DNA of 64,000 nt from Candidatus Poribacteria bacterium (GCA_964291315.2 OZ219753.1:832001-896000), one strand, 5' to 3'; positions 7,379-16,571 are shown, counted from the stretch's first letter. Numbers and translations are program-made. Notes: a model not told the origin generated them from the sequence alone.

Positions 7379-7488
7379 GCACAGACTCACAGTCTATGCT
7401 ACAAGGGCGTTGCACAGACTCACAGTCTATGCTACAAGAGTATAAGCGCGTTGAAGATGCACAGGAAACTAACAACCTATGCTACAAG
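7379..7488 (-). repeat. Cluster of three GTAG-type REP-like hairpins
   Basis: gcacagactcacagtctatgctacaag at 7379 and 7412, variant at 7459; minus strand reads GTAG followed by a palindrome. Confidence 0.75.
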
Positions 7489-7496
7489 TATCTTGC

Positions 7497-8531
7497 CTAG
7501 TCTAGTGGCAGGGCAATGGTTGTGCCGGTCTGCATGCTTTGTGTGACGGCTTGTGTAAATTCCATATACTTCACGCCTGTTTCAAAGTCGGTGTGGGTTA
7601 TAATTTCTTTGCCACGGATTGCGTTCACGAATTCTTCTTCGACGCGCCAGGTGCCGGCTTCGGTGTCGGGAATATCTATTTCGGTGAGGTTGGGGTTGCT
7701 CTTTTGCCCGGCGAAGAGGCGATTCTGTGAGAAGCGCAAGGTTCCGTTGCTGCCGAAGAGATAGACTTCTGGTGCTCCTGCGAGTCCTGCGACGTTAGAG
7801 ATTTGTAGGTGCAGTTGTGCGCCACAGGCGAGCTCTCCGACGATGTCGATGTGTTCGGGGATTCGGACGGGGCGCATTGTGCCTTCAGGGTCTGGTCGCA
7901 TTTTGACAAAGGTTTTGCCCATGGCGAAAACTTGTGTGGCTTCTCCGACCCATCGGATTAATGCTTCGTACCAGATTCCCATGCTCATGATGTTAAGCCC
8001 GCTGAGGTCGAAGTCTTGTCTCCACTGAAGTGGTGCTTGTGTGTCAAGGAATGTGCCGCCTGCGCGTGTTTCTACGGCGAGTATGTCGCCGATGTATCCT
8101 TCGGCGATGAGGCGTTTTATGGTGTTATCTACTCTGAGCGTCATGGGTGAGGGGACGATTTGGGCGATGAGATGCGTTTTTTGGCGTGATGCGTCGCGCA
8201 TGATATGTGCTTCTTTTGCGTTCATTGCCATTCGGGCTTCACACATCACGTGCTTATCTGCTTCTAGTGCTGCTACGGTAGCGCGGCAGTGCATATAGGG
8301 CCATGTGCCGATGACGATTGCGTTGGTATCTGGGTCGGCGATAGCGTGTTGCCAGTTGTTGTAGGTTTTGGGGATGCCGAACGTATCAGCTACCTGTCGT
8401 GAGGATGCTTCGCTGCGGTTGCAGACGCCGATGATTTCGACGTTTTCGAGGGCTTGTAGTCCGGGAATATGTCGTGATTTTGTATTTGCACCGGCGCCGA
8501 TAATACCGACCTGAATTGTATCTTGTGCCAT
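7497..8531 (-). CDS. Gfo/Idh/MocA-family oxidoreductase
   Basis: GIIGAG Rossmann motif, HVMCEARMA. Confidence 0.9.
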   Translation of the reverse strand: MAQDTIQVGIIGAGANTKSRHIPGLQALENVEIIGVCNRSEASSRQVADTFGIPKTYNNWQHAIADPDTNAIVIGTWPYMHCRATVAALEADKHVMCEARMAMNAKEAHIMRDASRQKTHLIAQIVPSPMTLRVDNTIKRLIAEGYIGDILAVETRAGGTFLDTQAPLQWRQDFDLSGLNIMSMGIWYEALIRWVGEATQVFAMGKTFVKMRPDPEGTMRPVRIPEHIDIVGELACGAQLHLQISNVAGLAGAPEVYLFGSNGTLRFSQNRLFAGQKSNPNLTEIDIPDTEAGTWRVEEEFVNAIRGKEIITHTDFETGVKYMEFTQAVTQSMQTGTTIALPLD

Positions 8532-8566
8532 TTATTTTGCTCCTTGGATTTTTTTAGTTGAAAGTG

Positions 8567-8590
8567 GCACAGGCTGCCAGCCTATGCTAC
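8567..8590 (-). repeat. GTAG-type REP-like hairpin
   Basis: gcac-aggct-gcc-agcct-atgctac. Confidence 0.75.
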
Positions 8591-8685
8591 AAGTGCGGGG
8601 TATGGAACGAAAGCGCCTCTCTTAACCTTTTTCAAACCCATGTTATTTTAGCAGAAATTCAGAAATATCTCAAGTGGAATTTGGA
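8583..8685. repeat. ~105-bp direct repeat, copy A, containing a minus-strand promoter
   Basis: Near-identical to 13485-13591; contains TTGAGA-17 nt-TAAAAT (8645-8673, minus strand). Confidence 0.9.
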
Positions 8686-8724
8686 TAGGCATACGTCATA
8701 CCTACCGCAGATCATTGTTTATTC

Positions 8725-8811
8725 TCAAACCTTCATATGTTCGTTAGCTTTCGCCAATAAAATAATGTTTGATGCTGTCAAGCGAAGGGCGTACCCAGCT
8801 ATGTATTCAGG
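8725..8811 (-). pseudogene. 3' remnant of a putative abortive-infection (Abi_C/STM4504-like) gene
   Basis: Manual translation PEYIAGYALRLTASNIILLAKANEHMKV*; no N-terminal portion present. Confidence 0.35.
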
Positions 8812-8972
8812 GAAGGAGGTTTAGCGCGGGCTTTACCATTCTCTCTGTCCGTTGTCAAGTTTTTCGCATATGTCAGATGTGAGTTGATAATTGTGTGTCA
8901 AACTCACGTTATTAGAGTTCATAGAGCTTGACAATATTCATACTTACAAGTTATCATGCCTAAAAGAGGCAT

Positions 8973-9600
8973 ATACAGAGACACGGGCGGACGCTCAGCC
9001 GGTGCTTGGTGTTGTTAGTGATGTGTGGACTCTTTTTCAGCAGCACACCTGCCGCACAAGGATTTAGTGTAAGCCGGGTAAAACAGTCGACCATTCTGAT
9101 AAAGCATGTGCATGAGCCGCAGTGGGTGGTGACGTATAATTTCACGCACGGCTGTTTCGATAGATTCAAGAGGTCTTGCTAGCACCCAAGGCAAGCAGCC
9201 GTCGTCGTCGATGTCGAGTTTAGATCATCTCCACGGCCAGCCACAGCCGTATATCGCCGAGGACGACAAGAACGGTATTATCTGGATGTATAAGACCCTT
9301 CACGAGGGGCAACGTGATGGCGACTGTTTTTTCCCCGATTATTTGCATGTAGAACGTCGCCGAGGGGACAAGTTCGGTGGTAACTGCGAGCCGCGTTATC
9401 CGTTGATATTTGGGGTGAGGCATGGCGGGGAGGATAATGTGCGGGACCTCTTGCGTGACGGTCCTAATCTCGAGCACAACGCTCGTGACTCTTTCGGCAA
9501 CACAGCGTTGCACTATGCGGTGTTGTTGGAGCGTCCCGCTATAAGCGAGTTGGGCGGAAGTGAAACGCAGGCGATGCGTCCTCCGGATGCCAACCGCTAG
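8973..9600 (+). pseudogene. Fragmented secreted ankyrin-repeat protein gene
   Basis: 8973-9182 encodes signal-peptide-like LSRCLVLLVMCGLFFSSTPAAQG; 9211-9600 ends in ankyrin NARDSFGNTALHYAVL, then diverges. Confidence 0.55.
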
Positions 9601-9645
9601 CTCGGACTATGGCAGCTCGTCTCAGGTACAACCTAACAGGTTATG

Positions 9646-10638
9646 CTAGAAGGCCGAGTGGTTTGCGTTAGTGTTTCGGCTGCTGTCTAACGCCTCTTGG
9701 AATGCGGTGAGGCTTTCTGTCTGGAGTGCCTCTCTGCGGAGCGCCTTGAGGCGGGGCAGGGCGTGGATCTGCTGGAGTGTGGTTGCCACCTCTGATAAGG
9801 TGCTGCCGCTGAACCGCAGTTCCAAGGTCTCGAGGATGCCTTCTATCAGGCTCTCTCGGGTGCCTTGCTCTCTGCCTTCCTCTCTGCCTTCCTCTCTACC
9901 GCGCTCTATGCCGCGTTCAATGCCTTGCTGAAGGAAATGTTGAATAACCGATGACTCTTGCATGATCGCCTCCATTATCGTCTCACGAATCGAGGAATAC
10001 TCAAATATCAATCCGCTCAGAATGCCTAAATCTGTCAAATACTCACCTTTTGATACACTCTCCGCATACACTGACTCCGCAACCGATACACACCGCCGAA
10101 GCCACGCATCGCCCGACGACGCATCCGCCGAGGGACGCATCAACGGCGTAAACGGGATCAAACCTTTCACACCCGCATCCAGAAAATGAGAGCCTTCTAT
10201 ATCATACAGACGGATCACCTTGTAGCCGATGCGCACCTCATACCCAGGAGCCGATTGCACATACGCTCCAGGATCCCGCCGGCCCGCACGCGGATGCAGG
10301 TAGATGACGTGTGAGTAAATCGGGAGTTGAAACTGCTCTATGCCCCTGCCGATGTAGCCCGCCATCCGATACTGCATCGGCACTGCTCCGCTATCCCGCG
10401 TCTGTATCTCCAAATGCACAATCGCAGGCTCGCCACCCAGACGCACCTCTATGAAACTATCGGCTCTGTTTGATTGGATGGTGGGCTGCTCGGTCTCTAA
10501 GACGCGGATTGCCTCCACGTCTGCTGTGCCGAGGGCGAACTCTGTCCAATCTTGTGGGTTTTGATGGATAATCGCTTTGGAAACAGTATCATATTGGCTA
10601 TGGCGCTTAGGCGTTGAACGCTCTTTTTGCTCTCTCAT
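9646..10638 (-). CDS. Rpn/YhgA-like PD-(D/E)xK nuclease family protein, copy 1
   Basis: YD.VSK, RADS...VHLEIQ, MQYRMAGY, MQESSVIQ plus GIER/GREE repeats, LELRF tail. Confidence 0.85.
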   Translation of the reverse strand: MREQKERSTPKRHSQYDTVSKAIIHQNPQDWTEFALGTADVEAIRVLETEQPTIQSNRADSFIEVRLGGEPAIVHLEIQTRDSGAVPMQYRMAGYIGRGIEQFQLPIYSHVIYLHPRAGRRDPGAYVQSAPGYEVRIGYKVIRLYDIEGSHFLDAGVKGLIPFTPLMRPSADASSGDAWLRRCVSVAESVYAESVSKGEYLTDLGILSGLIFEYSSIRETIMEAIMQESSVIQHFLQQGIERGIERGREEGREEGREQGTRESLIEGILETLELRFSGSTLSEVATTLQQIHALPRLKALRREALQTESLTAFQEALDSSRNTNANHSAF

Positions 10639-10695
10639 AGTAGCTGGAATGCTCGGGCGCTCCTTTCTCTTAGCAGGAGTGAGTGTATATGGTAT

Positions 10696-10725
10696 AGTCT
10701 ACCACACACCGATTGCAGAAGTCAA
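10696..10725 (-). promoter_or_regulatory. Promoter of Rpn copy 1 (same sequence upstream of copies 2 and 3)
   Basis: Minus strand TTGACT-18 nt-TAGACT. Confidence 0.55.
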
Positions 10726-10906
10726 ATACAAAACGAAATATCTCTATGAGTGGTGCTCATCTATCTTCCACTGGGCGTGTCTGCTGGTAACACAGCGTTG
10801 CACTATGCGGTGTTGTTGGAGCGTCCCGCTATAGTGGAGCTGTTGCTGGCACATCCGCTAGCTCGGACTATGGCAGCTCGTCTCAGGCACAACCTAACAG
10901 GTTATG

Positions 10907-11923
10907 CTAGAAGGCCGAGTGGTTTGCGTTTGTGTTTCGGCTGCTGTCTAACGCCTCTTGGAATGCGGTGAGGCTTTCTGTCTGGAGTGCCTCTCTGCGG
11001 AGTGCCTTGAGGCGGGGCAGGGCGTGGATCTGCTGGAGTGTGGCTGCCACCTCTGATAAGGTGCTGCCGCTGAACCGCAGTTCCAAGGTCTCGAGGATGC
11101 CTTCTATCAGGCTCTCTCGGGTGCCTTGCTCTCTGCCTTCCTCTCTGCCTTCCTCTCTACCGCGCTCTATGCCGCGTTCAATGCCTTGCTCTATGCCGCG
11201 TTCAATGCCTTGCTGAAGGAAATGTTGAATAACCGATGACTCTTGCATGATCGCCTCCATTATCGTCTCACGAATCGAGGAATACTCAAATATCAATCCG
11301 CTCAGAATGCCTAAATCTGTCAAATACTCACCTTTTGATACACTCTCCGCATACACTGACTCCGCAACCGATACACACCGCCGAAGCCACGCATCGCCCG
11401 ACGACGCATCTGCCGAGGGACGCATCAACGGCGTAAACGGGATCAAACCTTTCACACCCGCATCCAGAAAATGAGAGCCCTCTATATCATACAGACGGAT
11501 CACTTTGTAGCCGATGCGCACCTCATACCCAGGAGCCGATTGCACATACGCTCCAGGATCCCGCCGGCCCGCACGCGGATGCAGGTAGATCACGTGTGAG
11601 TAAATCGGGAGTTGAAACTGCTCTATGCCCCTGCCGATGTAGCCCGCCATCCGATACTGCATCGGCACCGTGCCGCTATCCCGCGTCTGTATCTCCAAAT
11701 GCACAATCGCAGGCTCGCCACCCAGACGCACCTCTATGAAACTATCGGCTCTGTTTGATTGGACGGTCGGCTGCTCGGTCTCTAAGATGCGGATTGCCTC
11801 CACGTCTGCTGTGCCGAGGGCGAACTCTGTCCAATCTTGTGGGTTTTGATGGATAATCGCTTTGGAAACAGTATCATATTGGCTATGGCGCTTAGGCGTT
11901 GAACGCTCTTTTTGCTCTCTCAT
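10907..11923 (-). CDS. Rpn family protein, copy 2
   Basis: As copy 1, +8 aa of repeat, with a few substitutions (RILE, PTVQ, SGTV). Confidence 0.85.
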   Translation of the reverse strand: MREQKERSTPKRHSQYDTVSKAIIHQNPQDWTEFALGTADVEAIRILETEQPTVQSNRADSFIEVRLGGEPAIVHLEIQTRDSGTVPMQYRMAGYIGRGIEQFQLPIYSHVIYLHPRAGRRDPGAYVQSAPGYEVRIGYKVIRLYDIEGSHFLDAGVKGLIPFTPLMRPSADASSGDAWLRRCVSVAESVYAESVSKGEYLTDLGILSGLIFEYSSIRETIMEAIMQESSVIQHFLQQGIERGIEQGIERGIERGREEGREEGREQGTRESLIEGILETLELRFSGSTLSEVAATLQQIHALPRLKALRREALQTESLTAFQEALDSSRNTNANHSAF

Positions 11924-12191
11924 AGTAGCTGGAATGCTCGGGCGCTCCTTTCTCTTAGCAGGAGTGAGTGTATATGGTATAGTCTACCACACACCGATTG
12001 CAGAAGTCAAATACAAAACGAAATATCTCTATGAGTGGTGCTCATCTATCTTCCACTGGGCGTGTCTGCTGGTAACACAGCGTTGCACTATGCGGTGTTG
12101 TTGGAGCGTCCCGCTATAGTGGAGCTGTTGCTGGCACATCCGCTAGCTCGGACTATGGCAGCTCGTCTCAGGCACAACCTAACAGGTTATG

Positions 12192-13220
12192 CTAGAAGGC
12201 CGAGTGGTTTGCGTTTGTGTTTCGGCTGCTGTCTAACGCCTCTTGGAATGCGGTGAGGCTTTCTGTCTGGAGTGCCTCTCTGCGGAGTGCCTTGAGGCGG
12301 GGCAGGGCGTGGATCTGCTGGAGTGTGGCTGCCACCTCTGATAAGGTGCTGCCGCTGAACCGCAGTTCCAAGGTCTCGAGGATGCCTTCTATCAGGCTCT
12401 CTCGGGTGCCTTGCTCTCTGCCTTCCTCTCTGCCTTCCTCTCTGCCTTCCTCTCTACCGCGCTCTATGCCGCGTTCAATGCCTTGCTCTATGCCGCGTTC
12501 AATGCCTTGCTGAAGGAAATGTTGAATAACCGATGACTCTTGCATGATCGCCTCCATTATCGTCTCACGAATCGAGGAATACTCAAATATCAATCCGCTC
12601 AGAATGCCTAAATCTGTTAGATACTCACCTTTTGATACACTCTCCGCATACACTGACTCCGCAACCGATACACACCGCCGAAGCCACGCATCGCCCGACG
12701 ACGCATCCGCCGAGGGACGCATCAACGGCGTAAACGGGATCAAACCTTTCACACCCGCATCCAGAAAATGAGAGCCTTCTATATCATACAGACGGATCAC
12801 CTTGTAGCCGATGCGCACCTCATACCCAGGAGCCGATTGCACATACGCTCCAGGATCCCGCCGGCCCGCACGCGGATGCAGGTAGATGACGTGAGAGTAA
12901 ATCGGGAGTTGAAACTGCTCGATGCCCCTGCCGATGTAGCCCGCCATCCGATACTGCATCGGCACTGCTCCGCTGTCCCGCGTCTGTATCTCCAAATGCA
13001 CAATCGCAGGCTCGCCGCCCAGACGCACCTCTATGAAACTATCGGCTCTGTTTGATTGGATGGTGGGCTGCTCGGTCTCTAAGACGCGGATTGCCTCCAC
13101 GTCTGCTGTGCCGAGTGCGAACTCTGTCCAATCTTGTGGGTTTTGATGGATAATCGCCTTGGAAACAGTATCATATTGGCTATGGCGCTTAGGCGTTGAA
13201 CGCTCTTTTTGCTCTCTCAT
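12192..13220 (-). CDS. Rpn family protein, copy 3
   Basis: As copy 1, +12 aa of repeat, with synonymous differences. Confidence 0.85.
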   Translation of the reverse strand: MREQKERSTPKRHSQYDTVSKAIIHQNPQDWTEFALGTADVEAIRVLETEQPTIQSNRADSFIEVRLGGEPAIVHLEIQTRDSGAVPMQYRMAGYIGRGIEQFQLPIYSHVIYLHPRAGRRDPGAYVQSAPGYEVRIGYKVIRLYDIEGSHFLDAGVKGLIPFTPLMRPSADASSGDAWLRRCVSVAESVYAESVSKGEYLTDLGILSGLIFEYSSIRETIMEAIMQESSVIQHFLQQGIERGIEQGIERGIERGREEGREEGREEGREQGTRESLIEGILETLELRFSGSTLSEVAATLQQIHALPRLKALRREALQTESLTAFQEALDSSRNTNANHSAF

Positions 13221-13484
13221 AGTAGCTGGAATGCTCGGGCGCTCCTTTCTCTTAGCAGGAGTGAGTGTATATGGTATAGTCTACCACACACCGATTGCAG
13301 AAGTCAAATACAAAACGAAATATCTCTATGAGTGGTGCTCATCTATCTTCCACTGGGCGTGTCTGCTGGTAACACGGCGTTGCACTATGCGGTGTTGCTG
13401 GAGCATCCTCACGTAGTGGAGCTGTTGCTGGCACATCCGCTAGCTCGGACTATGGCAGCTCGTCTCAGGCACAACCTAATAGGT

Positions 13485-13591
13485 TATGCTACAAGTGCGG
13501 GTTATTATGGAACAAAAGCGCCTCTCTAAAACTTTTTCAAACGCATGTTATTTTAGCAGAAATTCAGAAATATCTCAAGTGGTAATTTGGA
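13485..13591. repeat. ~105-bp direct repeat, copy B
   Basis: Matches 8583-8685; overlaps the intact REP at 13469-13492. Confidence 0.9.
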
Positions 13592-13600
13592 CTTACAAGG

Positions 13601-16510
13601 CTAGGACTCAGCGAATTTAACCTTAGATTTTTTTCCGCCGTGGATGCTCGGCTCTTGGCATAGCATTTTGCGGAGGAGGGCAAGCCCCTCGTGAACGTCC
13701 GGGCGTTCTTCCTCCGTTATACAGAGCACCTCCGATAACAGCCGTCGATCCAATTCATGACGGACAGGGTCGGAGTCTATCTCATTAAACGGTAACATTT
13801 TCTGACGCTTCAGCTCGTTGAAAACCTGTTTCGCGCTTGTGAGAGATTCGTCGGAGAGCGCCTGGACATCCAACGTGGGCATGGCGTTAAAAGTGGCACG
13901 ACTTAGGATTCCGCGCCCTTGCTGCTGCTTGCTGCTCCGATACCAATGACAAAGCAGACCGAACGTTGAATTGCACCACAACGTCCATGCATATTCATAA
14001 ATTTTGTTGTCAAAAACAACATTCGGGAGTTTGTTGACACCGATAACATTTTGTTCTGTGAACATCTGTATGAGCGAATTGGCATTAAACTGCAATTCCA
14101 TATTGTAATGGGCTCGTCCGTTTAATCTCATGATTTTCTGAACTTTTTCAGCGGAGTTTGGGCGCGGTTGGGCGTGGGAATCTGGTTGAACGAGCATTGC
14201 CCGCTGGGAGTCTGAATTTGAATCTAGATGCCACAAGCATGGATATATGGCGGTATCAGGGCATCCCTTTTGCACGTCAAACGCTCCTCTGCCGCCGCCG
14301 CCTTTTATATCACTTCCGCCAATACCTAGCGTCCCGATTGCTGAAACTGGACATATAGCGATTTGAATATCTGAGGTTTGTCGGGGAGTCCGTATTAGTC
14401 CGTTGGCGAGAGCGTGAGCTGTCTGGACGACGTTCATGTCTTTAACCCGTGAAAGGGGCCATCCTGCATCTGCTTGAGCGATAGGGGCGGCTATTGCATG
14501 TCCAATAATCTCATCGCCTATGTGGAGGGGTTCGCCGCCACTAAGGGTGTCGTCCAGCTGGCGGATATTTTTCAACCTATGGAATTCTTTCGCGACTTCT
14601 AACGCTTCCAATTCACCGTGCGGGCATCGCGTGAGACAGACGAATGTGCCGTGTCCTGTATTTTTACGTTTCCCTTTTTTCGCGACGACGAGGCATTCCG
14701 CCATATTGGTATCTGCTGAGAAGGCGCATTTTTCAATTTCCTCGTGTGCGATAGTGATGACAAGCACATCGTGATATTCTTCTGCCCACAACCTTCGGAC
14801 CTTCTTCCAACTATCTCCGGTGATAGCTGGGACAGGCAGTACAAATGCCATTGAACCGTTGCGTTTCAGCATTCTGTCTGCCAAATCAACGAAGTCTGGT
14901 CCCGCTCCTGGGTTGTTCCCGGTAAGTCGACGTCCCTGCGCCATTCGCGATGCACGCATTGCTGCAGCTTCTTTTTGGTCGGCGAAAATATTTTTGAGGA
15001 TATTAGTGTTACTATCGGCACCGCTCCGTGTGTAGGGTGGATTTTGGATGACGATGTCAAATTCGTTATGTTTGAAGGCGTCGCGCAGGTCGGTGGTTTC
15101 GGAGCCTTTTCCGGTGGCGGTTTCGGTTGCGCCGAGGTTTAAAGGGAGCGTGCCTGCTGGGTCGCTGAGCAGGTTAAGTGCGCCGATGGCGTAAAGTCCG
15201 TCGGCGCGTTGGGTGCCGTAGGGCATTGTGTGGATGCGCGTGCCGCCGATGCGGACGTCGGGATAGGTACTTGCGATGATGGATGCGGTCAGGTGTGCTG
15301 CGTTCGGTAGGATGTCGCATCCGACGAGATTGTTTTCCATCATATATTGATGGATGGTTTCCGCGTTGCCGCCGGCTTGTTCGTAAAGCATGAGTAGGCG
15401 TTGATAGACGCCGTTGAGGAGTGATCCTGTGCCGCAGGCGAAGTCTGCGATTTTAATTTTTTTAGGGTCTTTTGTGAGTTCTGGTAATGCGAGTGCGGAG
15501 AGGAGAGCAGAGGATTCGGGTCGCGTGTAGTTGGCTTTGAGAATTTTTCGGTTGTCGATGAGTTTCTGGAACACAATGCCGGCGAGTTCATGTTCTTGTG
15601 CGAGTCCCATTTTTTCTAGTTCGCGTGCGGTATCTCGCAGTACGCTGAGGATCTCGCCGACGAGTCTGTCGTCGGCTGCGAGTGTTTCGACGAGAGTGTA
15701 GGCGACGTTAAAAATTGGGGCGTAGTTAACTTTTTGGATTTCGCGCCATGCGCGGAGTACTTCGTCTGAGTCGAGGTGTCCGTAGGTTGTGGTAAATTCG
15801 CTGAGGGAGGGGACGTTTTCCAGGTCTGGTTTTCGGGCGATGGAGCTCTGGAAGACGAGTGCGTTGCTGATAATCAACATCGCCATTTGGGTTGTTTGTT
15901 CGCCGGGTTCTTGTATAAGGAGTTGGGCTATTTTTTCGCCGATATGGGGTCGGTGTTGGATGGCGGTGTTGACGATAACGGCTGCGCGATAGATACCGTT
16001 TTCGAGTAGTGCTGCGGCTTCCTCAATTTTAGCGATAGGCGTTGCGCCGATTCGGATGGCTGTTGCGATGTCTGCGATTCGTCCTTTAAGCCATCCTTCT
16101 CTTGGGAATCTGTCGGGCGTTTCAAGACTGAGCAGGACGTACTTGAAGTCGTCGGTGCTTTTTAAGTGCTCTTGGATGTCGTGGCGTGGCATTGTGCGGA
16201 ATCTGTGCGGAATGCGGATTGCTATTGCACTAGCAACGGTTTCGAGGGTGGTGCGGAGGGTTTTGCCGAGGTAATGTTCGCGTGCCTGCTCTATGCCGGT
16301 TTCGTTGGAAGTGTGCTTAGGGTCGATTTTTACTTCGACCGCCATCGGATAGCGTTCGACTGTGCGGATAATTATATCGGGTTTCCGCTGATTTTCGACG
16401 AGCGGTTTTGTTGTTTGTTCGTAAATGCGCCAGGTGGTGCTCATCGGCATTAGGTGTTCGACGAATAGGGTTGTGATGGTGTCTTCGCTGTTGGTGTGTT
16501 GGCGGTTCAT
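13601..16510 (-). CDS. Single-chain restriction-modification enzyme (Type IIG/IIL-like, amino-methyltransferase)
   Basis: N-terminal KPD...VEVK nuclease motif, motif I DFACGTG, motif IV NPPY, C-terminal TRD-sized region. Confidence 0.8.
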   Translation of the reverse strand: MNRQHTNSEDTITTLFVEHLMPMSTTWRIYEQTTKPLVENQRKPDIIIRTVERYPMAVEVKIDPKHTSNETGIEQAREHYLGKTLRTTLETVASAIAIRIPHRFRTMPRHDIQEHLKSTDDFKYVLLSLETPDRFPREGWLKGRIADIATAIRIGATPIAKIEEAAALLENGIYRAAVIVNTAIQHRPHIGEKIAQLLIQEPGEQTTQMAMLIISNALVFQSSIARKPDLENVPSLSEFTTTYGHLDSDEVLRAWREIQKVNYAPIFNVAYTLVETLAADDRLVGEILSVLRDTARELEKMGLAQEHELAGIVFQKLIDNRKILKANYTRPESSALLSALALPELTKDPKKIKIADFACGTGSLLNGVYQRLLMLYEQAGGNAETIHQYMMENNLVGCDILPNAAHLTASIIASTYPDVRIGGTRIHTMPYGTQRADGLYAIGALNLLSDPAGTLPLNLGATETATGKGSETTDLRDAFKHNEFDIVIQNPPYTRSGADSNTNILKNIFADQKEAAAMRASRMAQGRRLTGNNPGAGPDFVDLADRMLKRNGSMAFVLPVPAITGDSWKKVRRLWAEEYHDVLVITIAHEEIEKCAFSADTNMAECLVVAKKGKRKNTGHGTFVCLTRCPHGELEALEVAKEFHRLKNIRQLDDTLSGGEPLHIGDEIIGHAIAAPIAQADAGWPLSRVKDMNVVQTAHALANGLIRTPRQTSDIQIAICPVSAIGTLGIGGSDIKGGGGRGAFDVQKGCPDTAIYPCLWHLDSNSDSQRAMLVQPDSHAQPRPNSAEKVQKIMRLNGRAHYNMELQFNANSLIQMFTEQNVIGVNKLPNVVFDNKIYEYAWTLWCNSTFGLLCHWYRSSKQQQGRGILSRATFNAMPTLDVQALSDESLTSAKQVFNELKRQKMLPFNEIDSDPVRHELDRRLLSEVLCITEEERPDVHEGLALLRKMLCQEPSIHGGKKSKVKFAES

Positions 16511-16571
16511 GCGAATTCCTTTGCGCAGGTTGATAGGTTATGCTGCAAGGGCGGTCTCTGCTGCAAGACGG

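Follow-up and report, generated by a model that had tools for sequence, protein, structure and literature searches.

What has produced a head-to-tail array of three nuclease-like genes that each end on the hairpin of a repetitive extragenic palindrome (REP), and is this hairpin the cause of the array or only carried along with it? The question is raised by a 64,000-nucleotide stretch of DNA (the window, from whose first letter all coordinates are counted) of a Candidatus Poribacteria bacterium, which belongs to a sponge-associated, uncultured lineage and whose genome is metagenome-derived and 95.2% complete. Positions elsewhere in this genome are given as contig:position (e.g., C4:). The original prediction for the locus had been a REP-directed capture or amplification of a defence nuclease, and thus an undescribed system. 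The analysis presented here makes it probable that the array is a young, locally generated tandem amplification of self-contained cassettes, which belong to a Poribacteria-specific, distant branch of the Rpn (YhgA-like) PD-(D/E)xK nucleases.

Repeat analysis of the window revealed 3.1 head-to-tail units, starting at 9496, 10786 and 12071 with spacings of 1290, 1285 and 1297 nucleotides (nt), where the fourth, partial copy of the unit start (about 125 nt, an 'A' segment) runs from 13368 to about 13492-13496. Every unit contains one long open reading frame (ORF) on the minus strand, at 9646-10638, 10907-11923 and 12192-13220, encoding Rpn-like proteins of 330, 338 and 342 amino acids (copies 1 to 3). 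Copy 1 carries the four-residue repeats GIER x2, GREE x2 and GREQ, copy 2 has two GIE(R/Q) repeats more than copy 1, and copy 3 one GREE repeat more than copy 2. Each ORF is preceded on the same strand by a sigma-70 promoter of its own, TTGACT-18-TAGACT with a TG extension (10696-10725, 11981-12010 and 13278-13307, with the first hexamer at 10725, 12010 and 13307), and the -35 and -10 boxes of this promoter are kept in all 11 close paralogs of the genome. The motif STAGCATAACC is found four times in the window against 0.05 expected; three CTAG copies lie exactly on the three stop codons and a GTAG copy ends at 13492. The TAG stops are therefore inside the REP hairpin, which reads CTAGCATAACC at the three gene ends and GTAGCATAACC at the end of the array. 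The units are 97-99% identical to each other and at most 92% identical to any dispersed copy, they are of distinct length and have private substitutions, and they differ from unit to unit by 18-24 substitutions and by in-frame changes of 12- and 24-nt repeats. In its description of the locus the original prediction was largely accurate, as the A-R-A-R-A-R-A order, the separate promoter in each R, the coincidence of the stops with the TAG of the REP and the inexact nature of the copies were all recovered.

The 'A' segment, however, is not a free-standing element. In it, part of a single ankyrin repeat (GNTALHYAVLLERPAIVELLLAHP) is linked to the REP hairpin by a short spacer. The source of the fragment is a decayed zincin-ankyrin pseudogene on the plus strand at 9006-9600 (ORFs 9006-9182 and 9211-9600), whose last ankyrin repeat opens the array. 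Less decayed paralogs of this gene are located at C4:2657775-2658964 and C4:811.5 kb. The first of these, frameshifted itself, encodes a zincin (HExxH) and ankyrin protein and keeps the HExxH protease core, which the pseudogene in the window lacks. All four segments lie on the plus strand. A1 (9496-9645) consists of the ankyrin fragment (beginning GNTALHYAVLLERPAI) with an internal deletion of its own, the pseudogene stop, the spacer and the REP at 9626-9649. In A2 (10786-10906) the fragment has a deletion unlike that of A1 and is followed by the spacer and the REP at 10887-10910. A3 (12071-12191, REP at 12172-12195) equals A2 in both repeat families found across it (57 nt and 69 nt), and A4 (13368-13492) is the most ancestral-like ankyrin fragment, with junction and deletion as in A2 and A3 and an intact GTAG REP at 13469-13492. 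The zincin (HExxH)-ankyrin family is small; all three copies are decayed or frameshifted, and each faces an Rpn-like gene in convergent orientation, with a REP or a REP doublet between the two.

The origin of the units can be read from two single-copy paralog loci at C4:811 kb and C4:2659 kb. There the order is ankyrin gene, stop, REP doublet and the stop of the convergent nuclease gene, and at both loci the TAG stop of the nuclease gene lies inside the GTAG of the REP as well (TCGTAGCAT). The segment of ankyrin tail, REP and gene in the array is colinear with these loci, so both flanks of each array REP are ancestral neighbours. The sole join without a single-copy counterpart is the one of CACTGGGCGTGTCTGCT to GGTAACAC, which is identical before A2, A3 and A4 (10785/10786, where GTCTGCT meets GGTAACAC, 12070/12071 and 13367/13368). 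To the left of it lies that end of the nuclease gene block which is farthest upstream, as BLAST homology to the paralog at C4:946 kb reaches the last base of the unit (position 1285) and ends at GGTAACAC; to the right the sequence enters the ankyrin gene at an internal run of Gly-Asn-Thr codons. The distance from the REP to this novel join is about 120 nt, and the proposal that the unit boundary falls at the REP had to be given up, because in every unit both REP flanks are colinear with the single-copy paralogs. The junction bears the signature of a tandem duplication that was begun by an illegitimate join and expanded by unequal exchange. A single novel junction shared by head-to-tail units, and neighbours that are closest to one another, are what amplification by unequal recombination leaves behind, and this is the pattern observed here.

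Two other readings of the segment were tried and rejected. The 36 nt left of each GGTAACAC are not diverged ankyrin sequence, as they are homologous to the upstream region of the C4:946 kb paralog. That R was inserted into A and a long target stretch duplicated in the process, which would also give A-R-A, is ruled out by the differing deletions of A1 and A2-A4 and by the ancestral flanks of the REPs.

According to the model that we favour, the first duplication would have arisen from an illegitimate join, in which the upstream end of the gene block was attached at an internal codon of the decayed ankyrin pseudogene beside it. Later unequal homologous exchange between units would have raised the copy number, and slippage of the 12- and 24-nt repeats would have led to copies with different repeat counts. 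Recombination between REPs would have shaped only the outer right end of the array. The hairpin of A4 has the stem of the gene-type REP, while its far flank runs into a second copy of the REP and promoter region of the neighbouring Gfo/Idh/MocA gene (Gfo gene), and this end, the only REP-shaped one, is a REP-REP recombinant.

Local duplication is not restricted to this array. The host carries 11 copies with at least 80% identity at 7 loci, whereas the best match in 40 congeners is only 66-69% identical, which points to a lineage-specific burst within a family that is present in 41 of 41 genomes of the genus (2-14 copies each at E<=1e-40). Tandems of the family were found at three further loci, where the copies are arranged as gene-palindrome-promoter, by fusion of a gene to a partial one, or with a gene directly bordering on the promoter that follows, and the four tandem loci have four different types of junction. 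At the three full tandem loci the neighbours are mutually closest (97-99%, 96% and 98% nucleotide identity, N-terminal part), and the duplications are therefore local and independent. At the dispersed loci homology takes in no more than the gene, the REP and about 135 nt of upstream sequence, and its ends vary among the 7 loci. Neither terminal inverted repeats nor target-site duplications flank the units or the dispersed loci, which are thus not of the form of insertion sequences. Two of the other tandem loci, C4:738487-740042 and C1:130472-132556, have odd junctions: in one tandem a partial copy, beginning at residue ~160, is fused to a full gene five bases past the stop of the latter, and in the other the stop of the first gene lies inside the -35 box of the promoter of the next copy.

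The codon differences between the copies are mostly synonymous (synonymous to non-synonymous 8:5, 10:2 and 14:3), which suggests that all three copies are being maintained. Across 64 aligned homologs, nearly all of them metagenomic proteins and two with Poribacteria names, the residues D17, D60, E77, Q79 and R91 are invariant (64/64). They match D11, D63, E82, Q84 and R94 of RpnA by pattern, order and similar spacing and not by residue-level alignment, and mutation of these RpnA residues abolishes or alters its activity (Kingston 2017, PMC5350276). The AlphaFold model of the protein has a mean pLDDT of 82.6. Its top Foldseek matches in the PDB are PD-(D/E)xK nucleases (NucS/EndoMS, Cap4 and BstEII), although weak with E 0.03-0.08 (hits to 0.3), and VIA-align gave middling scores for 2vld_B (Z 6.6), SdaI (Z 5.6) and Can2 (Z 5.5).

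More distant relatives point in the same direction. A family-profile search of 1.84 billion representatives gave 4309 relatives, and among 25 distant full-length relatives that were scanned two carry DUF4351 and one Transposase_31, all above the cut-off. The DUF4351 matches (68 and 42 bits) are at the aligned C-terminal position, and a weak PF04754 (Transposase_31) match occurs in 2 of the 64 homologs (best E 0.0067). The nearest atlas clusters are DUF2887/DUF4351 'transposase family' proteins with scores of 0.96-0.97. The window proteins thus resemble these cyanobacterial and Chloroflexota proteins, which are the nearest named clusters, and relatives of the window family have DUF4351 at the same C-terminal position; unlike them, the window proteins reach neither model, and for both sides the function is a predicted one. 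Taken by remote homology only, the protein is a putative Rpn-type PD-(D/E)xK nuclease.

The second part of the likeness to Rpn concerns the C-terminal domain. In E. coli, a small C-terminal protein, RpnS, is made from an internal start and blocks the toxic full-length nuclease, RpnL; its start lies 8-20 residues before the four-residue repeats, and the main text of Zhong et al. equates DUF4351 with a free-standing RpnS (Zhong 2023, PMC10327210). The specificity of RpnL and RpnS is set there by the number of repeats: one repeat added to one partner breaks neutralisation, and the same repeat added to both restores it (PMC10327210, main text). In the window, copy 3 has an internal GGAGG-N5-ATG at Met226, and the repeats begin 12 residues after this methionine, which is within the RpnS range. 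The Shine-Dalgarno sequence (GGAGG or GGGGAGG), the 5-nt spacing and the in-frame ATG are present in 11 of 11 close paralogs, and Met226 in 55 of 64 homologs. Apart from four residues, it is the repeat count in which the three proteins of the array differ from each other (GIER/GIEQ x2, x4 and x4; GREE x2, x2 and x3). The diversity of the copies noted in the original prediction was therefore confirmed, and it resides in that part of the protein which sets toxin/antitoxin pairing in E. coli Rpn.

For residues 226-342 a homodimer was predicted with a score of 0.72, where the best control reached 0.00; at least 97% of the contacts are common to the runs, with a partner pLDDT of 85 or more, and the contacts are in register along the repeat helix. 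Among proteins of known structure, 20 of 30 that were solved as pairs and 1 of 23 that were solved as single chains come up to this mark. The structure of the RpnA-S dimer has been solved, and so the homodimer result may only show likeness or memory. Each cassette would accordingly consist of its own promoter and a full-length nuclease ORF, presumably the toxic RpnL form, and from the internal Shine-Dalgarno sequence and ATG it would yield a small C-terminal protein, presumably the RpnS antitoxin form. By analogy with E. coli RpnC, the repeat counts should make each small protein specific for its own nuclease. We infer from this likeness the toxin/antitoxin action, an anti-phage role and the orthogonality of the copies.

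Several observations weigh against the explanation of the array as a young amplification of an Rpn-like nuclease. As regards the protein family, PF04754 matched none of the three copies at E<=0.01 and no window protein even at E<=10, and a whole-genome scan gave 0 matches. TIGR01784 reached 14.7-16.2 bits over the repeat region alone against a cut-off of 52.1, PADLOC 2023 had no match for the Rpn-like protein, and neither the single protein nor the family profile found a match among the PDB sequences. The fold matches are weak too (Foldseek E of at least 0.03; VIA Z of 6.6 for 2vld_B). The name Rpn given in the original prediction consequently falls below every curated threshold and stands by remote homology only. 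Apart from a methyltransferase gene next to the array, the scanned neighbours belong to ordinary domain families or to none, with 0 defence-model matches. In addition, the copy number is taken from the assembly only, and there is a Logan contig in which 13398 is joined to 9527, an arrangement that the assembly does not contain.

The history of the array is not free of conflict either. A1 on the one hand and A2-A4 on the other carry different, non-nested deletions of the ankyrin tail, A1-A3 have common substitutions that are absent from A4, and A4 is closer to the paralogs. Nor is the pattern clock-like in the 5' half of the gene, with no private substitutions in copy 1 against about 9-10 each in copies 2 and 3. 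The conflicting deletions and substitutions of the A segments call for further deletions or for gene conversion, and the uneven pattern is probably due to conversion between members of the array or with dispersed paralogs as donors.

An active alternative to such passive duplication is that breaks made by the Rpn-like nuclease itself seed tandem duplication and dispersal, so that the burst is driven by the enzyme. The 11 close copies at 7 loci, set against the 66-69% identity of the best match in 40 congeners, the three or four independent local duplications and the dispersed homology of promoter, gene and REP with variable ends would all suit it. Furthermore, RpnA promotes RecA-independent recombination (PMC5350276), and the possibility is raised in the discussion of Zhong et al. 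(PMC10327210). However, terminal repeats and target duplications are lacking, direct evidence that links the enzyme to the junctions is missing, and heterogeneous junctions are what ordinary illegitimate recombination gives; gene conversion among paralogs could moreover inflate the apparent recency. We therefore regard an enzyme-driven burst as unlikely. A wider version, in which cleavage by the gene product seeds duplication and dispersal of the promoter-gene-REP cassette, 12-nt slippage instantly makes orthogonal toxin/antitoxin pairs, and the REP acts as preferred break or join site or controls the ratio of long to short protein (via translation or mRNA stability), is held to be rather more doubtful. 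If it were true, such a self-amplifying array would by itself generate defence specificities, instead of being the passive result of duplication.

That the array is an assembly artefact, in which strain alleles were concatenated or a repeat was mis-resolved and truly one or two copies exist, was judged very improbable. The genome does come from a metagenome, and the reads available were two public runs of one study, possibly of the source sample, in the form of short Logan contigs, none of which spans a unit and whose summed word depth is not a copy number. Since the short contigs of both runs never bridge a unit, it is the 3.26-Mb contig, together with the structural differences of the units and the other tandems of the family, that speaks for three copies. 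An artefact would also fit the substitution pattern among the copies, which is not clock-like, and the 13398-to-9527 junction. The contig with this junction, which comes from a single one of the two runs and extends for 53 nt on the shorter side, combines the left part of A4 with the right part of A1 (back-joint 3872 nt); it could be an excised circle, an extra unit or a strain variant. Exact-match scans of metagenome and genome contig collections with the 25-nt tandem junction found none, where records of the own genome may be excluded from these collections. On the other side, the array is on a 3.26-Mb contig of a 4-contig assembly, the units have distinct lengths and private substitutions, A1 is structurally unlike A2-A4, and the flanks of the array are unique and defined. 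Three more tandem loci of the family exist in the genome, and rpn arrays are known from isolate genomes in the main text of Zhong et al. (PMC10327210).

The last alternative is that REP hairpins set the unit boundaries and drive the change in copy number, via a REP-associated tyrosine transposase (RAYT) or by REP-REP recombination. A dispersed family of such elements does exist. Its genome-wide form is GTAGCATA followed by a variable 9-bp stem and TGTGC, which 81 sites match strictly; nhmmer gave 127 hits at E<=0.01, and the GTAGCA head is present in 134 of 183 hits at E<=1; the REPs are a real, GTAG-headed family of imperfect palindromes with about 130-180 copies. At the paralog loci inverted doublets resembling REPINs (REP doublets forming hairpins) occur. 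The window as a whole gave no Rfam match at gathering thresholds, nor did 8400-13800 at E<=5, and REP and promoter repeat are therefore not a known RNA. Further REPs in the window form a cluster of three at 7380-7500, downstream of the Gfo gene, and a single one at 16527-16560, upstream of the methyltransferase start codon; their stems differ between conserved GCAC...ATGCTAC ends, and pairing is kept by compensatory changes.

The transposase required for a RAYT mechanism was not detected. PF01797, the model for Y1 (HUH)/RAYT transposases, gave 0 matches in the 95.2%-complete genome with positive control genomes, whereas 40 of 40 other genomes of the genus have 1-15 Y1 transposases each. The host thus keeps about 130-180 GTAG-headed REPs without any Y1 (IS200/RAYT-type) match, and these are possibly orphaned. 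In a census, 5 of 152 xTAGCA-headed REPs close a frame of at least 150 codons (two control frames gave 0 and 1), and 4 of these 5 belong to the Rpn-like lineage. Among 14 family copies five stop on the TAG of a REP, namely the three window copies and two loci with the ankyrin module, while three have a TAA stop with another kind of palindrome behind it, and in the remainder there is no REP. The two additional loci share the ankyrin module, and so the five stop-in-REP copies count as one event by descent. The original prediction had proposed to check whether other Rpn genes of the lineage end on a REP: the two dispersed loci do, which means that the overlap is not unique to the array, but the rest of the 14 copies do not. 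The REP over the stop codon is an inherited 3'-end feature of the gene lineage.

The idea of duplications mediated by REPs has a long record. A report by Shyamala from 1990 is said to have placed REPs at duplication join points. A precedent for REPs at such join points is also given by Slack 2006 (PMC1428787), and in contrast to that case the repeating junction of the present array is not at a REP. Like known REP systems, i.e., bacterial interspersed mosaic elements (BIMEs) and REPINs, the host has GTAG-headed hairpins with 9-bp stems in about 130-180 copies, REPIN-like doublets and a REP-REP recombinant at the outer end of the array; unlike in REP/RAYT systems a cognate Y1/RAYT gene is absent, and the overlap of a REP with a coding stop, as seen here, is rare in the host (5/152). 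Although all three stops lie within REPs, the array ends in an intact REP and its right end combines a gene-type stem with a Gfo-type flank, the proposed REP-directed capture or amplification is largely refuted by the junction analysis and was considered extremely improbable. Within the units each REP still has its ancestral neighbours on both sides, and the new join was made at a different place; the stop overlap came down together with the ankyrin module, as two other loci show; frames of at least 150 codons are closed by just 5 of the 152 REPs; the genome has 0 Y1_Tnp against 40 of 40 positive congeners, and three other tandem loci have junctions without the REP.

The surroundings of the array are of interest with respect to its location. 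A direct repeat of about 120 nt, consisting of a REP and the strong sigma-70 promoter of the Gfo gene, brackets a 4.9-kb insert. Its left copy (8566-8682, minus strand) comprises the REP hairpin and the promoter TTGAGA-17-TAAAAT; the right copy (13468-13587, minus strand, promoter 13578-13550) points into the array, could read through into gene copy 3 and is 13 nt from the stop of the methyltransferase gene. The latter (13601-16510, minus strand) encodes a 969-amino-acid N6-adenine DNA methyltransferase (type IIG or PglX-like), which is conserved as a neighbour of the Gfo gene across the genus and has no obvious partner nuclease. In the congeners the two genes are 0.1-3.4 kb apart with unrelated content between them, and the array therefore sits in a variable hotspot beside a modification enzyme. 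In two relatives' loci (L004 and L005) this gap holds unrelated small genes, e.g., ORFs of 206 and 195 amino acids.

Compared with E. coli Rpn, the array genes share the D/D/ExQ/R catalytic pattern (Kingston 2017, PMC5350276) and the arrangement of an N-terminal nuclease followed by a variable helical C-terminal domain (PMC5350276, PMC10327210). Also shared are four-residue (12-nt) repeats that vary in number, with an in-frame internal start 8-20 residues ahead (PMC10327210), and an adjoining gene of restriction-modification type (PMC5350276, PMC10327210). As in the main text of Zhong et al., where rpn genes are without terminal inverted repeats or target duplications, have variable ends and are reported in arrays formed by tandem direct duplication, the genes here are multi-copy and arrayed by direct duplication, with the same absence of inverted repeats and target duplications and the same variable ends (PMC10327210). 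On the other hand, the window proteins are below the PF04754 and TIGR01784 thresholds, the host is an uncultured Poribacteria member, the stop codon is embedded in a REP hairpin, and the unit drags along a fragment of an ankyrin pseudogene. In contrast to E. coli, the toxicity, the small protein and the defence function of the array genes are predicted ones.

Tandem arrays and the pairing of RpnL and RpnS tuned by repeats are both already described in the main text of Zhong et al. (PMC10327210), so that the locus is a distant addition to the known Rpn kind and the array reveals no new kind of system; the claim of an undescribed one fell with this precedent. The precedent was judged on that main text, and its supplements may hold closer arrays. 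New are the clade, the clean diversification within one array and the inherited stop-in-REP arrangement. With regard to the latter, the striking coincidence of REP and stop codon is an example that such a feature can be inherited baggage and need not be the mechanism. The locus would extend the Rpn architecture of a toxin with an internal antitoxin to a Poribacteria-specific family that is missed by the Pfam, NCBIfam and PADLOC models. With three sister copies under purifying selection in a single array it also provides a clean natural example of a process that Zhong et al., in their main text, could only infer (PMC10327210). As the sister copies are nearly identical except for the repeat number, which in E. 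coli decides the neutralising partner, a simple cross-neutralisation experiment is possible.

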